From contig CAZIYE010000001.1 of NCBI GenBank assembly GCA_964543385.1, positions 240,001-272,000 of the forward strand: a stretch of DNA of 32,000 nucleotides, in the 5' to 3' direction. Of this stretch, positions 2,613 to 31,360 are shown piece after piece. The notes beneath the pieces are model-generated. The model was not told the DNA's origin and did not search any database. It saw only the letters and a program-made list of their open reading frames with translations. The DNA comes from an uncultured Candidatus Saccharibacteria bacterium (GTDB lineage: Bacteria; Patescibacteriota; UBA1384; XYA2-FULL-43-10; 1-14-0-10-43-13). Both the position numbers and the translations under genes were made by a program. Position 1 is the stretch's first letter, and each line of letters begins with the position of its first letter.

Positions 2613-3692
2613 ATGAGGTCGCTACCGACCATCAGTTTTGCTGGAAAAGTAGGATCTATAGTTCTGGGAGGTATGGGTGGGTTAGTAGGAACACCAAAGT
2701 TAGCAGCAACCGTTGCAAACGAAGGTGGTGTCGGAACCGTCTCATTCGTAGCGCTAGACCGCTATGTCGAGGCAAAGACCGGCTGCAAAGCAACCCCCCA
2801 AGAAGCATCCAGATTTGCCATCGAAGAGGCAAAAGGGCTGCGCCATGACAAAGCAGGACCAATTTTCCTGAATGTTATGACCCTCATGAATGACTATAGA
2901 CCCTCAGTGTTAGGTGCTGTTGAGGCAGGAGCAGACGGGATCATTGCTGGAGCAGGTCTTCCAACCGGCTTAGCAGAGATTGTTGGCGATGCCGACATAG
3001 AGCTGTGGCCAATTGTCTCCTCAGCACGAGCCCTTGCGATCATCTGCCGTTACTGGGCAAAACGAGGCAGAAAACCAAGTGGCGTTATTATCGAAGGACC
3101 GCTCGCCGGCGGTCATCTTGGCTTCAATTTCGAAGATATCTACAAGCCCGAGTACCAACTCGAAGCAATCTTTGTAGATATACTGAGACTTTGCCAAGAG
3201 CAGGACATTCACCAAATAGTCGTCGCTGGCGGCATTTGGGATACAGCAGACATCGTTCGCTGGCTCGACTTAGGCGCCACAGGCGTCCAACTAGGAACAC
3301 GCTTCCTGGCAACAGAGGAAAGTGGTGCCTCTGACGACTTCAAGGCAGCAATTGTAAAAGCCACAGCTGCCGACATCGTAGTTGCGATGAATCCAGGATC
3401 TCCATCCGGAATGCCCTTCAGGGTCATCGCAGACTCGCCCGGTTATATCCAAGCCCTTCGGCGAGATCGACAATTCCGCTGCATGTTGAAATACATGCTC
3501 CACGATGGGTCATGCAGAGCTACACAAAGCACAGACCATTTCTGCATCTGCGACGGCCTCCTATCAGCCGTTGGCCGACATCCCGACAAGAGTGCACTAG
3601 CGCTCTATACTTGTGGCACAAACGCCGCAAGAGTTGACCGTATCATGACGGTCAAAGGCCTCATGGATGAACTCAAAGGTATCACAAAATGA
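2613..3692 (+). CDS. nitronate monooxygenase / FabK-like FMN-dependent oxidoreductase (NMO family), 359 aa
   Basis: ORF 2538..3692. The internal ATG at 2613 has AAAGGAGAG 6 nt upstream and is preferred. Motifs: GGMGG..GTPKLAATVANEGGVG, IIEGPLAGGHLG, VVAGGI.D...I...L.LGA.GVQLGTRFLATEES. C-terminal Cys-rich tail. Clearly higher G+C than neighbours: hand counts of 50% and 57% on two lines. Confidence 0.85.
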   Translation: MRSLPTISFAGKVGSIVLGGMGGLVGTPKLAATVANEGGVGTVSFVALDRYVEAKTGCKATPQEASRFAIEEAKGLRHDKAGPIFLNVMTLMNDYRPSVLGAVEAGADGIIAGAGLPTGLAEIVGDADIELWPIVSSARALAIICRYWAKRGRKPSGVIIEGPLAGGHLGFNFEDIYKPEYQLEAIFVDILRLCQEQDIHQIVVAGGIWDTADIVRWLDLGATGVQLGTRFLATEESGASDDFKAAIVKATAADIVVAMNPGSPSGMPFRVIADSPGYIQALRRDRQFRCMLKYMLHDGSCRATQSTDHFCICDGLLSAVGRHPDKSALALYTCGTNAARVDRIMTVKGLMDELKGITK

Positions 3693-5223: not shown

Positions 5224-5234
5224 ATCTTGGTCTC

Positions 5235-5275
5235 AAAATAAAAAAGGCGTAACCTACGCCATTGGTATTATTATA
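5235..5275 (-). promoter_or_regulatory. leader of the ABC-F gene: -10 box, 2-codon mini-ORF and terminator-like hairpin (possible attenuator)
   Basis: Minus strand reads TATAAT (5275-5270), aatacca, ATG GCG TAG, with the stem GGCGTA (5251-5246) ggt TACGCC (5260-5255) overlapping the mini-ORF, then TTTTTATTTT, only about 11 nt before the ABC-F ATG (5223). Confidence 0.45.
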
Positions 5276-5329
5276 GCACATTCATCACAAAAGTACAGAT
5301 ATTAACAACAATTGTTTCTCTTTTTATCG

Positions 5330-5361
5330 TTGCGGAGCTCTGGTTTATCAGAGCTCCGCAA
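5330..5361. repeat. perfect 13-bp inverted repeat (stem-loop)
   Basis: ttgcggagctctg (5330-5342), loop gtttat, cagagctccgcaa (5349-5361). It lies just downstream (minus sense) of the 30-aa ORF. There is no clean T-run on the minus strand; tctttt follows on the plus strand. Confidence 0.6.
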
Positions 5362-5372
5362 TCTTTTCCACA

Positions 5373-5465
5373 CTATTTACTACTTGTAAGCGGTCCAAGA
5401 CCTTTTTGTTTCTTGTTCTTCTTTGGCTTCTTGACCTCTTTTTTAGCACCCTTATCTTTTCCCAT
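5373..5465 (-). CDS. small lysine-rich basic peptide, 30 aa (below the ORF-track cutoff)
   Basis: ATG at 5465 is preceded by AAAGAGGG at 4-nt spacing; TAG at 5373-5375. Translation: MGKDKGAKKEVKKPKKNKKQKGLGPLTSSK. A stem-loop follows. Confidence 0.4.
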   Translation of the reverse strand: MGKDKGAKKEVKKPKKNKKQKGLGPLTSSK

Positions 5466-5533
5466 ATAACCCTCTTTTTATTTAATTATTTTTATTCTAC
5501 CAGAAAAAATTGATTTATTGTAAAAGATGATTA

Positions 5534-5755
5534 CTATTTTCTTTGTCTAATAAATTCTATTTCTAGCGCAATATAGCCAATCCCAAGTATGATCAATCCG
5601 CCAATCACCTTCTGACTTGGAATATTAAAAGTCGTGGTACCAAAATAATTGAACAACCAAGTTACTGCTCCAATTGCAAATATCGTTGCCCCCGCCAAAA
5701 TCAAGAACATCGCAACCCCAAGAAATGAAACTTTGTTTGGATCTCTTGAAAACAT
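5534..5755 (-). CDS. small membrane protein, 73 aa, two predicted TM helices
   Basis: Perfect AAGGAGG sits 3-4 nt upstream of the ATG. Hydrophobic segments: FLGVAMFLILAGATIFAIGAVTWLF and VIGGLIILGIGYIALEI. Confidence 0.75.
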   Translation of the reverse strand: MFSRDPNKVSFLGVAMFLILAGATIFAIGAVTWLFNYFGTTTFNIPSQKVIGGLIILGIGYIALEIEFIRQRK

Positions 5756-5945
5756 AGTCCTCCTTATAATTATTATTTGCTCTCAAATAGTTCTATGGCG
5801 AATCCAGTAGGATCTTTTATAAAAGCATAGCACTTCGTGAGTTATTCATAAAGCCAAGATAACGATCTTTATCGCTTATTATGAAGTTATCATAGAAACA
5901 TCAAGAAAAGATGAAGAAGATTCTTTATCCCATCTCTTGATCGGA

Positions 5946-21514: not shown

Positions 21515-21877
21515 TTAGTTCACTTTGGCTAAATTTGTTTTATCATTAGTAAAATTTACGCTAGATACCGGCTCCATGACTTGCTTTTCAATACCACTAT
21601 CGATCACTCTGAGCGCCTTCAATCTTGTCTGTTCTGCCTCTAGACGTTCTTTTTCAAGCATCAGTTCATCTTTTTTTGATTCAATATCTCTAACTCGGAC
21701 GCTTCTAGATGCTCCTGCTGTCGATTGGCTTAAATAGACCACAGCTAAAACAGCGACGATAGTAAGTGCAATAAACTTTATTGCATTAGGTCCAACTACA
21801 AAGCCCTTACTTACTGTTTTCTTTTTTTTGCCTAATCTAATTGAATTTGAATTTGTAACAATAAAATCTCTCGCCAA
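21515..21877 (-). CDS. ftsL: FtsL-like / septum-formation-initiator-like protein, 120 aa
   Basis: Single TM (FIALTIVAVLAVVYL) followed by a coiled coil (KKDELMLEKERLEAEQTRLKAL). Located directly upstream of ftsI. TTG start with GGAGG 4 nt upstream. Confidence 0.65.
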   Translation of the reverse strand: MARDFIVTNSNSIRLGKKKKTVSKGFVVGPNAIKFIALTIVAVLAVVYLSQSTAGASRSVRVRDIESKKDELMLEKERLEAEQTRLKALRVIDSGIEKQVMEPVSSVNFTNDKTNLAKVN

Positions 21878-21903
21878 TTTGCCTCCAGGGATATTAATCT
21901 TAG

Positions 21904-22136
21904 TTGCTGCCAGCCATTTTTTGTTTTCTTGCCCCGTGAAATATTTCTTTCAAACATTATTTCAATGGGGTGTTTCTTCGCCCAAATTTTTGTTTTTGTC
22001 CCTCACCTCTCGGATTGACTAGAATCAGAAAGGTGAGGGGTTAGGCTCTGCCCCTCCTTTGTCCTCCTCCGAGCCTCAATAATGAAGCGTATACAAATGA
22101 GAACGGGTTAGAGCCTAAAGTACAGGCTGGCAGCAA
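21904..22136 (-). ncRNA. candidate structured RNA / cis-regulatory leader in the mraZ-ftsL gap
   Basis: Perfect 12-bp long-range stem (21904-21915 / 22125-22136). It encloses an 11-bp hairpin (22000-22010 / 22029-22039), a second hairpin (21932-21970), and an 8-bp pairing (22041-22048 / 22111-22118) that has a competing partner at 22071-22076. GC-enriched relative to other spacers. No ORF on the operon strand. One stem position is G-U only in minus-strand sense. Confidence 0.5.
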
Positions 22137-22213
22137 TAAAATCGATTTCCTATTTCTTGCTACAAATTGTAAATGTACTAACTTTCTACTCTCGACCCTC
22201 TACTATCTACTTT

Positions 22214-22645
22214 CTAGAAACCGATCTCTGATAATTGCTCCGCTACTTCCTCGGAATTGTTTTCCATGTCTGTTTTGAACTCATTCCACTTTTCCTCTGC
22301 CCAAATCTCCAATCTATTATGCATCCCTGTTACAACTACCTTGCCTTTTATTCCAGCATAATCAGCTAAATACTTAGGCACATTTACTCTGCCAACTTTA
22401 TCAAGTTTCAAATCCATCGCGCCGGAAAGGATAAATCTGCCAAAGCTTCGGGCATTCTTTTGCGTTATTGGTAATTGCGATACTTGCTCGGCTATCTTTT
22501 CCCATTCAGCCTCAGTATAAAGCCACAAACATCCATCAAGTCCACGAGTTAGGATCAAGCCTTTCGCTAATTCATCACGAAACTTAGCCGGCACCGACAT
22601 TCTCCCCTTCTCGTCTAAGCTGTGTTGATACTCACCAATGAACAT
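22214..22645 (-). CDS. mraZ: transcriptional regulator MraZ
   Basis: MFIGEYQHSLDEKGRMSVPAKFR plus a second SpoVT/AbrB-like half (KLDKVGRVNVPKYL). ATG 22645 is preferred over GTG 22657, because the GTG lies inside the third MraZ-box repeat. Confidence 0.9.
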   Translation of the reverse strand: MFIGEYQHSLDEKGRMSVPAKFRDELAKGLILTRGLDGCLWLYTEAEWEKIAEQVSQLPITQKNARSFGRFILSGAMDLKLDKVGRVNVPKYLADYAGIKGKVVVTGMHNRLEIWAEEKWNEFKTDMENNSEEVAEQLSEIGF

Positions 22646-30371: not shown

Positions 30372-30400
30372 AAAATGTCCCCCCTTTTGTTTGATATACT

Positions 30401-30428
30401 GAGATCCGATAGCTACCTATCCGATCTC
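30401..30428. repeat. near-perfect 12-bp inverted repeat upstream of the 101-aa gene (operator or 5' hairpin candidate)
   Basis: gagatccgatag (30401-30412), loop ctac, ctatccgatctc (30417-30428); 11 of 12 positions pair. It lies immediately upstream of a TATATC -10-like box (30398-30393, minus). Confidence 0.5.
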
Positions 30429-30593
30429 TCCAGACAAACAAAAAACTGGCCCAAGCCAGCTATTTATTCACTATTATTAATTTATAATTCGACTACACAA
30501 AAAATGCCGGCTTTACCAGATAATCAGATTGCCACCACCAATTTTGTGAATGATTAATCATTTCTAATATATTAACATAAGCGATAATAATTT

Positions 30594-30629
30594 AAAAAGT
30601 GGGTGGGGCCGCTTATTAGGCGGCCACCC
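30594..30629 (-). terminator. GC-rich terminator hairpin downstream of the 86-aa gene
   Basis: gggtgg(gg)ccgc (30601-30612) / gcggccaccc (30620-30629), a 6+4 bp stem with a 2-nt bulge. Minus sense is followed by acTTTTTaaatt. Confidence 0.65.
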
Positions 30630-30644
30630 GGTCGAAAGAATGTC

Positions 30645-30905
30645 TTAATTGCATAATGCAATCCTCTGACATTCAAGATGATGGATTGGATAGTCCTTCA
30701 TCAGAAAATAATAACGAGTTATCGCCTTGAGGCGCTCATTCAAGATGATGCCACACCGAGCAAATGCGTCAAAAGCATCACTTTCGCTTGATGCAGCAAG
30801 AACAACTGGGGGTAAGAATTCTTTGGCTAATGCCATTAACTCTTTGCCGCTAATAACCGACCTATCCTTGGAAGAACGATCAGGACGGCAGAAATAGCTA
30901 CTCAT
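30645..30905 (-). CDS. hypothetical protein, 86 aa, GC-rich relative to host
   Basis: ATG 30905 with AAAGGAG 7 nt upstream, a TGTATAAT box about 25 nt further upstream, and its own terminator. No family recognised (MSSYFCRPDRSSKDRSVISGKELMALAKEF...). Confidence 0.6.
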   Translation of the reverse strand: MSSYFCRPDRSSKDRSVISGKELMALAKEFLPPVVLAASSESDAFDAFARCGIILNERLKAITRYYFLMKDYPIHHLECQRIALCN

Positions 30906-30931
30906 CACACAGCTCCTTTGGGGTTTTTGGT

Positions 30932-30939
30932 ATTATACA
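30932..30939 (-). promoter_or_regulatory. candidate -10 (TGTATAAT) for the 86-aa gene
   Basis: Minus strand reads gtcgcTGTATAATacc. The -35 is weak. Confidence 0.4.
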
Positions 30940-30971
30940 GCGACTTGCATAAGCAAATCGCCATAAATAAC

Positions 30972-30994
30972 AAAAAATCTGGCCTTTTGGCCAG
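30972..30994 (-). terminator. terminator hairpin (minus sense)
   Basis: ctggcc (30979-30984), loop tttt, ggccag (30989-30994). Minus sense is followed by aTTTTTTg. Confidence 0.6.
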
Positions 30995-31028
30995 CTTTGT
31001 TAAATTTTTTTTATAACTTTATGAACTT

Positions 31029-31142
31029 TTAATTAAAAATTGCTGGCCTTTGGTCAGATGTAAAGTAAAAGTAAAACCAGTTTTTAGTAGTAATAATATT
31101 CATCGATATAATCAATCTAGCAAATCATCATTTTGATGTCAA
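31029..31142 (-). ncRNA. mini transcription unit: promoter, ~75-nt transcript (sRNA or 24-codon near-leaderless ORF), terminator
   Basis: Minus strand: TTGACA (31142-31137), 17 nt, TAGATT (31119-31114). ATG at 31103 (MNIITTKNWFYFYFTSDQRPAIFN, stop 31029-31031). Hairpin ctgacc aaa ggccag (31057-31043) followed by caATTTTTaatt. Confidence 0.35.
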
Positions 31143-31160
31143 TTAAACAGCTTGGGTGAC

Positions 31161-31196
31161 GGGAGAGTGCTGTATACATGTTGCCAGCACTCTCCC
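31161..31196 (-). terminator. 12-bp GC-rich stem-loop immediately downstream of the 52-aa ORF (terminator candidate without a T-run)
   Basis: gggagagtgctg (31161-31172) / cagcactctccc (31185-31196), with a 12-nt loop. Confidence 0.45.
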
Positions 31197-31201
31197 CGAC
31201 C

Positions 31202-31360
31202 TTACATTTGAATTGTCGCCGGATCCTTTAGGCACTTGCCCTTAGGATGATGGCGACGGCACTTGGGACACCACACGGGGATGTCCACGCCATCAGATGG
31301 CGTTGAGGGGGGAATCCATGGTTGCCGCTTTCGCGGCATCTCAGAGGGGGTTGTCGGCAT
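31202..31360 (-). CDS. small Pro/Lys/Arg-rich protein with a CxxC...C motif, 52 aa (internal start of the 85-aa track ORF)
   Basis: ATG 31360 lies 7 nt after GGAG and 4 nt after the stop of the upstream 143-aa gene (GGAGTGAAATCATG). Translation: MPTTPSEMPRKRQPWIPPSTPSDGVDIPVWCPKCRRHHPKGKCLKDPATIQM. The composition is somewhat frame-artefact-like, so confidence is low. Confidence 0.4.
   Translation of the reverse strand: MPTTPSEMPRKRQPWIPPSTPSDGVDIPVWCPKCRRHHPKGKCLKDPATIQM

Follow-up and report, generated by a model that had tools for sequence, protein, structure and literature searches.

A conserved structured RNA between mraZ and ftsL in the division and cell-wall operon of Berkelbacteria-like Patescibacteria

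The 32-kb stretch of contig CAZIYE010000001.1 analyzed here (called the window throughout, in its full length) comes from a Berkelbacteria-like member of the Patescibacteria, or candidate phyla radiation (CPR), and has a G+C content of 38.7%. Its minus strand carries, in this order, glyS, mraZ, a 336-nt spacer, a gene for an FtsL-like protein, ftsI, murF, mraY, murD, ftsW, murG, murC, murB and ftsQ. The spacer (21878-22213) is bounded by the TAG stop codon of mraZ (22216-22214) and by the TTG start codon (21877-21875) of the downstream cistron. The upstream cistron, mraZ (22214-22645, minus strand), is identified by the open reading frame (ORF) list and by PF02381 (E = 7.6e-38), and the 120-amino-acid (aa) product of the downstream one (21515-21877, minus strand), for which a Pfam search returned no match, is assigned as FtsL-like from its position and from the transmembrane-plus-coiled-coil layout read off its translation. 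Our results indicate that the spacer encodes an RNA of ~230-300 nt, folded as one closed domain and conserved with compensatory changes across the whole clade, which we hold with high confidence to be a real conserved RNA family. The family is previously undescribed, is operon-sense, and lies within the mraZ-ftsL-ftsI-mur transcript of the division and cell-wall (dcw) cluster of Berkelbacteria-like Patescibacteria, where it probably acts on the expression of the downstream division and cell-wall genes.

The original prediction had described this gap as free of operon-strand ORFs of 60 aa or more and as richer in G+C than the other spacers of the window. The coordinates and the ORF list agree with the first statement, the only ORFs on the minus strand of the spacer being of 41 and 31 aa. 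Neither is conserved, and the 31-aa ORF is interrupted by a stop codon in L161, a relative with 94% MraZ identity, so that a small coding gene was rejected. The second statement is borne out by a G+C content of 44.6% in the core of the spacer and 41.1% in the whole of it, against 29-39% in the other window spacers of at least 100 nt and 39.4% in coding sequence, the core being the highest-G+C long spacer of the window. Nor is the gap a decayed rsmH. Pfam finds rsmH (PF01795) neither in this slot nor elsewhere in the 32 kb, and a tblastn search of the spacer and the rest of the window, for which 84 RsmH-sized Patescibacteria proteins were taken from related loci as queries, gave noise alone (best overlap, E = 3.0), which rules out a pseudogene remnant.

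We compared 185 mraZ-centred loci, drawn from species-representative genomes, Joint Genome Institute (JGI) metagenomes and contigs encoding close MraZ homologues. Among the first 161 loci, an rsmH-sized gene lies beside mraZ in 109, within 60 nt in 79. Where MraZ is at least 63% identical, every locus has an ftsL-sized gene there instead, behind a spacer of ~200-510 nt, for which the automatic ORF caller gives 143-508 nt. MraZ homologues at this level of identity number more than 100, and their sources carry names such as Candidatus Berkelbacteria. Beyond the closest relative the spacers have little plain sequence similarity, yet they share a common fold layout. Because variable inserts displaced the closing helix (P1) by 4 nt, a plain MAFFT alignment failed, and the first covariance model (R1) was therefore seeded from trimmed core sequences; R1 aligned the natural sequences, from which the model was rebuilt as R2. 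The two models match 24 sources at E ≤ 1e-5 among the 185 loci, including the public loci L172 (GCA_002773985.1) and L006 (contig JAPLVL010000032.1). All 24 share the strand of mraZ, which they follow directly, and precede the ftsL-like gene, in genomes with MraZ at least 63% identical. In the 32-kb window, R2 gives one match (123 bits) and otherwise noise.

In the 22 distinct natural sequences, standard pairs make up 93.6% of the pair cells, compared with 35-55% in controls whose 3' partners were shifted by 1-3 columns, which preserves sequence relatedness, and 23 of the 30 pairs have changed on both sides; none of 500 shuffles reaches any of five measures, all counted on an alignment fitted to the structure of the model, which favours that structure. 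RNAalifold on the same alignment predicted P1, the internal helix P2 and its CCC/GGG extension independently. The spacer itself has a minimum free energy (MFE) of -108 kcal/mol, against -77.5 +/- 4.9 in dinucleotide shuffles (z = -6.2, 0 of 100 as good), and the domain at 21875-22170 reaches -107.8 kcal/mol (z = -7.85, 0 of 200 as good). The plus strand of the spacer also folds stably (z = -5.7), as is expected for a set of helices, so that energy alone cannot assign the strand. Read in the minus-strand sense, the family alignment holds 47 G-U cells against 20 A-C cells, an excess that favours an operon-sense RNA and to which the covariance model's own preference for G-U adds.

Rfam 15 covariance models gave no match in the window at gathering score and nothing beyond noise at E ≤ 10 in 21700-22400, the models of 6S, SRP, RNase P, tmRNA and the riboswitch classes included, and no family match in 20 related loci, with thresholds relaxed to E ≤ 10 or 5. 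The sub-threshold scores (MIR854, SisR1, rli43, CrcZ and SAM-II) are noise far below gathering score, and a literature search found no paper describing an mraZ-ftsL RNA element. With the covariation and the G-U excess, this upholds the earlier proposal of an operon-sense structured RNA outside Rfam, including its more stable folding than shuffled controls and its conservation in relatives. The suggested relation to the mraW RNA motif (RF01746) did not survive, since this model has no match in the window at gathering score, none in 21700-22400 even at E ≤ 10, and none in the 20 related loci. Both are candidate cis-regulatory structured RNAs in the 5' part of the dcw cluster, beside mraZ and mraW (rsmH); however, the window RNA is larger, lies after mraZ and has other conserved sequences. 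The mraW motif is listed for Actinomycetales only (Weinberg et al. 2010, PMC2864571) and stands upstream of mraW, whereas our host is Berkelbacteria-like and no mraW/rsmH follows.

With the basal extension of its closing helix counted in, the folded domain as a whole spans 21875-22170 (minus strand, as do all features of the RNA below). The core of P1 is a perfect inverted repeat in which UUGCUGCCAGCC (22125-22136), with a GCCAGC that is near-invariant in the family, as is the GCUGGC opposite, pairs with GGCUGGCAGCAA (21904-21915); 10 of its 12 pairs have compensatory changes, the outer five covarying freely, and it is recovered by RNAalifold. An interrupted basal extension joins 22137-22169, including CAAUUUGU, readable as a -10-like TACAAT box, to 21875-21903, which holds the ftsL Shine-Dalgarno (SD) sequence GGAGG and the TTG start. 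In the window, P1 and its extension amount to 34 bp in total (-38.1 kcal/mol by duplexfold). The SD (21886-21882) begins 17 nt past the P1 stem and lies in a small internal loop (predicted probability of being unpaired, 0.86), and the start codon (21877-21875) is paired (0.07). The helix terminates, in the window and in L081, in a CAAUUUG/CAAAUUG pairing that covers the TTG start, and within the subclade of the window it starts 43-86 nt after the mraZ stop. Across the family the closing helix measures 19-47 bp by duplexfold, with at least 19 bp in 14 of 15 members. It reaches the ftsL start in the window, L081, L001 and L184, abuts it in L161 and ends at most 21 nt away in five more.

Inside P1, a linker (J1/2, UGUACU, 22119-22124) of differing length among family members leads into P2, whose 5' strand (UUAGGCUCU, AA, CCC; 22105-22118) pairs with GGG, GC and AGAGCCUAA (22041-22054). 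P2 is paired in 98.3% of cells, is again recovered by RNAalifold, and has compensatory changes in seven of nine pairs, its CCC/GGG part changing solely from C-G to U-G. Enclosed by it are an apical region, which varies, and the conserved tract CGGAGGAGGACAAAGGAGGGG. The purine tract GGAGGAGGACAAAGGAGGGG spans 22051-22070. According to the fold model, its GAGGAC (22066-22061) is the partner of GUUCUC (22104-22099), and its AAAGGA (22060-22055) makes up the 3' side of an asymmetric internal loop. The apical hairpin, GCUUCA-UUAU-UGAGGC (22073-22088), varies greatly in length and marks one of three hot spots of the domain at which variable hairpins are inserted. The P3 hairpin, CCCCUCACCUUUCUGAUU / AAUCCGAGAGGUGAGGG (22000-22040), in which an anti-SD-like strand is paired to an SD-like strand, is found in L161, L081, L008 and L164 and is replaced or missing in other members. 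It is followed by a single-stranded, highly conserved A-tract and UUUG, ACAAAAACAAAAAUUUG (21983-21999; consensus cAAAAAcAAAA.uuUg), then by a lineage-specific cccc...gggg inverted repeat (21932-21970) and by a second A-tract, CAAGAAAACAAAAAAU (21916-21931), directly 5' of the P1 3' strand. This second AAAACAAAAAA tract, separated by the variable region from ACAAAAACAAAAAUUUG, is kept in most members and in the variant-B relatives described below. The window has four copies of AAAACAAAAA where 0.7 would be expected, two of them in this RNA.

All the pairings read by eye in the original prediction are present in the window at the positions given for them. Its 12-bp stem is the P1 core, 100% complementary and covarying in the family; its hairpin at 22000-22039 exists as 22000-22016 with 22023-22039, 88% complementary, with a U-G pair in the minus-strand sense only; its ttaggctc/gagcctaa pairing extends to P2 and covaries; and both the purine tract at 22070-22051 and the placement of the element's end 17 nt before the ftsL SD are confirmed. 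Two of these features are not conserved. The cccc/gggg hairpin is present there (21932-21943 with 21958-21969) but absent from the closest relatives L161, L081 and L008. Likewise, the gagcct duplicate proposed as a competing partner, and so as a switch, does lie at 22071-22076, but these relatives have GGAGCUC instead, so that the switch is not supported.

Conservation in the family concentrates in the P2 helix UUAGGC/GCYUAA, in an exposed SD mimic, cAAAGGAGGGG, and in two single-stranded AAAAACAAAAA tracts. The columns of the mimic are conserved at 70-90% or more in the 22 sequences. Its optimal SD-like core, AAAGGAGG, lies in the P2 internal loop with no start codon behind it and occurs once in the 32 kb, counting both strands, at 22060. 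It is the strongest SD-like 8-mer of the window, yet it stands ahead of no gene, and an SD-like motif within 20 nt of the start is found in ~9 of 25 window genes. The purine tract has two mutually exclusive registers, one of which (GUUCUC:GAGGAC) exposes AAAGGA, whereas the other (CUCRUUUGU:RCAAAGGAG) buries it. The latter joins CUCAUUUGU (22101-22093) to ACAAAGGAG (22062-22054); of its 12 pairs, 11 can form in the window and 9-11 in nine other members. Its sequence is nearly invariant, so that it shows almost no covariation, and a subgroup (L087, L003, L002, L086 and L163) has no UUUGU and hence no second register; we regard this alternative register as a lead only.

Shorter elements, which we call variant B, stand at the same place in other genomes. 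A search of 2 x 1.03 Mb of locus sequence gave five occurrences of the pattern TTTG[TC]T[CT]A[CT]CTCC, every one on the mraZ strand, 37-224 nt past the mraZ stop. Variant B, as defined by this regular expression and by the R2 evidence, comprises L013, L048, L095, L125 and L155, all directly after mraZ. Its members are 85-150 nt long and are closed by a helix that covaries; they also have an A-rich stretch, UUUGUUCACCUCCU, in some cases a hairpin, and AAAAACAAAAACAAAAA beside the 3' strand. Up to 11 nt of UUUGUUCACCUCCU are identical to the canonical bacterial 16S 3' end. R2, built from the window type only, ranks the five elements top in their loci (E = 7e-4 to 0.035), and L125, L048, L155 and L095 are among the first sub-threshold matches of the large R2 search. 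The two forms have in common the position after mraZ, the strand, the closing helix and the succession of A-tract, UUUGUUC and AAAAACAAAAA beside the 3' strand. Variant B differs in having no P2 domain, and in place of the SD mimic it has UUCACCUCCU(UUG), a mimic of the 16S 3' end. L155 combines a variant-B interior with a GCCAGC/GCUGGC helix and is followed by ftsL. Most intriguingly, L013 and L095 contain CCUCCUUUGU, to which the conserved loop ACAAAGGAGG of the window type is exactly complementary; a DNA inversion between the variants, which such reverse-complementary motifs might suggest, was rejected because UUUGU and the A-tracts hold their order and orientation in both. On these sequence grounds, we regard the two forms as related.

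In L013, L048, L095 and L125 the gene after variant B is rsmH (PF01795, E down to 1e-110). If the forms are related, the element would have stood between mraZ and rsmH before rsmH left that position. The earlier description of an RNA in the rsmH slot therefore holds as geography, but it is misleading as evolution, since the shorter elements precede a bona fide rsmH (PF01795, E = 1e-107). The RNA is no replacement for rsmH; in the rsmH-less operons L020, L024 and L104 the gap after mraZ is just 26-33 nt and contains no RNA. A survey lists RsmH among the rRNA-modification enzymes retained in CPR (PMC12641178). In the four loci in which rsmH follows variant B, the gene has no SD in the 10-22 nt ahead of its ATG, though an anti-SD-like UUCACCUCCU is present in the element immediately upstream.

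As to how the RNA is made, no terminator-like site was found on the operon strand of the spacer, and a promoter-like match at 22195-22166 (9 of 12 positions) is not above chance expectation in the promoter scan. An internal promoter was rejected: the TACAAT box (22171-22166) is kept only in the window's subclade, where it pairs with the ftsL start region. Because P1 starts 0-12 nt past the mraZ stop in 10 of 15 members, the spacer has no room for a promoter in most of the family, and the RNA is thus most likely co-transcribed with mraZ. It has neither the promoter of its own nor the intrinsic terminator of a free-standing small RNA (sRNA) gene.

The reading we lean towards, tentatively and with rather less than even confidence, is that of a co-transcribed, cis-acting intercistronic element that would be both processed and ribosome-engaging. 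The domain would act post-transcriptionally. Its helix of about two turns is the type of duplex cut by RNase III and could serve as a processing and insulating stalk; cutting P1 would uncouple the cistron of the MraZ repressor from the ftsL-ftsI-mur message, and folding would place the mraZ end and the ftsL ribosome-binding site (RBS) on opposite sides of one helix. The functional surface would be formed by the conserved motifs left unpaired, the SD mimic and the A-tracts, which would most likely hold a 30S subunit near the weak ftsL start by way of the 16S anti-SD or of a protein that binds A-tracts. Of 15 members, 14 start ftsL with TTG or GTG, and L007 starts it with AUG. RNase III processing stalks are known as helices flanking 16S and 23S rRNA and from intercistronic sites such as rpsO-pnp. 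The window RNA resembles them in the long near-perfect helix of about two turns formed by sequences flanking a domain in a polycistronic transcript, and its closing helix, as measured above, has the length of an RNase III site (~20 bp of near-continuous double strand). However, those stalks enclose rRNA or a freely varying interior, whereas here the small enclosed domain is itself conserved. The GGA-containing purine tracts and the (ARN)n-type AAAAACAAAAA tracts exposed between helices recall sRNAs that titrate proteins or ribosomes through short repeated motifs, CsrB and RsmZ (GGA) and CrcZ (A-rich AANAANAA), but the window RNA has two or three motif copies and no free-standing gene, and the CrcZ match is noise (E = 2.6, 15.5 bits against a gathering score of 95).

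Several observations weigh against a cis-acting element of this kind. Predicted accessibility of the ftsL SD and start ranges inconsistently from 0.05 to 0.9 across 15 members by partition function, and blocking the 15 nt past the mraZ stop does not systematically open the RBS in them, so that translational coupling by RBS unmasking was rejected. The distance from the closing helix to the ftsL start ranges from -3 to 121 nt and is 45-121 nt in L003, L163, L002, L007 and L086; a coupling or standby role could therefore not be purely geometric, and the spread of both measures does not support a conserved RBS-occlusion switch. The closing helix of L086 has only 13 bp. Variant B carries an anti-SD mimic, which a simple ribosome landing pad does not predict. 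The fit of the pair-count alignment to the model also belongs here, as does the gathering of all loci through MraZ, which biases the sampling to the mraZ position.

The same layout might instead belong to a riboswitch or a protein-binding operator, in which junction and loop nucleotides would bind a metabolite or protein (a cell-wall precursor or nucleotide signal, for example) and thereby shift the register of the purine tract, setting ftsL-ftsI-mur expression. We consider this unlikely, though several features speak for it: the aptamer-like arrangement of a core of conserved unpaired nucleotides among covarying stems, with variable hairpins at fixed insertion points, the two exclusive registers, the second of which is at 9-11 of 12 pairs in 10 members, and downstream genes that form one coherent pathway. 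However, a conserved expression platform is missing, as the operon strand has no terminator and the spacing and accessibility of the SD and start vary; the alternative register nearly lacks covariation because its sequence is near-invariant; five members do not have it; and the gagcct switch is not conserved.

That the RNA is an embedded sRNA we hold to be doubtful to a similar degree. On this account the helix would be a processing stalk like those around rRNAs, and the stable 130-300-nt RNA excised from it would be trans-acting, for instance by sponging up the 16S anti-SD or a protein that binds GGA motifs or A-tracts. The covarying closing duplex of at least 19 bp without a promoter or terminator of its own, the conservation in loops and not near the flanking genes, and the SD-mimic and anti-SD-mimic variants, typical of RNAs that pair with ribosome-binding regions, would all fit, and the variable distance to ftsL would be immaterial. 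6S RNA offers a partial parallel, being of similar size (~200 nt), having a long closing stem and being cut from a longer precursor, as the window RNA would be, but the Rfam 6S models have no match at E ≤ 10 and the window RNA is predicted to be a multi-helix junction with a 5' linker of 1-13 nt, not a rod with a central bubble. Against an sRNA stand its strict linkage to one operon position in every case (in a sample biased to mraZ loci), its one to three motif copies, far below those of known sponges, and a sole Rfam hint that is the noise-level CrcZ match.

Less likely still is a pure determinant of processing and stability, that is, an RNase III or RNase Y site with protective stem-loops that would give the flanking messages differing half-lives without binding ribosomes or a ligand. 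The RNA always lies directly past the repressor gene mraZ and combines a long duplex with A-rich single strands, and an analogy exists in the cggR-gapA transcript of B. subtilis, in which cleavage separates the repressor gene from those of the enzymes. Such a site would, however, leave the near-invariant UUAGGC/GCYUAA, cAAAGGAGGGG and A-tracts, kept down to 63% MraZ identity, unexplained, since known RNase III stems tolerate free sequence change. If true, it would be a clean case of an operon keeping its organization after gene loss.

It is highly improbable that there is no RNA element at all and that the spacer holds a decayed rsmH, a miniature inverted-repeat transposable element (MITE) or a DNA-level inverted repeat, since the terminal inverted repeats, the stable opposite strand and the small hairpin modules recurring at differing places in relatives are outweighed by the absence of RsmH similarity with 84 queries, the excess of G-U over A-C, the compensatory changes found not only in the terminal repeat but also in internal helices, and a single syntenic copy in every genome without matches in plasmid or phage collections, which also led us to reject a mobile element.

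A bolder reading, to which we assign little probability, is a ribosome-mimicry module that would sense or titrate free 30S subunits, or a factor reading the 16S 3' end; a new class of riboswitch governing CPR division would be its alternative. Were ribosome mimicry true, the ancestral form upstream of rsmH would display a copy of the 16S 3' end, UCACCUCCUUU, and the Berkelbacteria form the exactly complementary optimal SD, ACAAAGGAGG; the family would thereby tie the expression of the 16S methyltransferase and of the division and cell-wall genes to the state of the ribosomes.

CPR bacteria make up a large share of bacterial diversity; their gene regulation is scarcely known and few specific non-coding RNAs have been described in them. 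For the present family, which is well supported, a consensus and a covariance model that works are now available, and public loci carry it. It sits where the division and cell-wall operon is controlled, in a clade without rsmH at its usual place. The occurrence of SD-mimic and anti-SD-mimic variants at one operon position is unusual and may bear on the coupling between ribosomes, rRNA modification and cell division in minimal cells.

Several further features were observed in and around these loci. A hairpin module, (G)CCCAC-UUCGCUC-loop-GAGCUACGCGGG(C), recurs at differing positions inside or beside the RNA in several genomes (L087 2975-3010, L002 4605-4640, L163 2005-2040, L091 ~3030-3065, L086 ~3165-3195 and L095 1387-1420); it may be a small hairpin like a repetitive extragenic palindromic (REP) element or a MITE, accounting for the insertion hot spots. 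In other Patescibacteria, a different conserved hairpin, CAGGGTTTTATCCAGGAGAGAAATGG...ATGCTTATCCTATTTCTCTCCTGTAAAA, lies downstream of mraZ (L061 4433-4647, L096 497-700, L139 2933-3209 and L140 2933-3140). The next gene is an rsmH-sized ORF in L061 and L139, the contigs of L096 and L140 ending sooner, and Rfam gave no match in the L061 and L139 spacers; the hairpin may represent another RNA motif, unrelated to the first, that shares its place in the operon. Near-perfect hairpins built on GTCATCCTGAA...TTCAGGATGAC, with arms of ~45 and ~25 nt respectively, fill the mraZ-rsmH spacer in L031 (4433-4754) and L046 (4433-4678) and are probably repeat elements. Gaps of ~960-990 nt, the size of rsmH, separate mraZ from an ftsL-sized ORF in L051, L079 and L130, where rsmH may be frameshift-interrupted or read in another code. 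Within the window, the stretches 30372-31262 (891 nt), 5224-5945 (722 nt) and 2050-2537 (488 nt) have no ORF of at least 100 aa and no Rfam or tRNA matches. Upstream of mraZ lies a promoter-like TTGACG-17-TAAAAT (22714-22686, minus strand), followed by three GTGG boxes with a 10-nt period (tGTGGtaaaaaGTGGtaaaaaGTGGgaaac, 22677-22654, minus strand) that end 9 nt ahead of the mraZ ATG. MraZ binds three direct repeats, and the boxes look like an MraZ autoregulatory operator.

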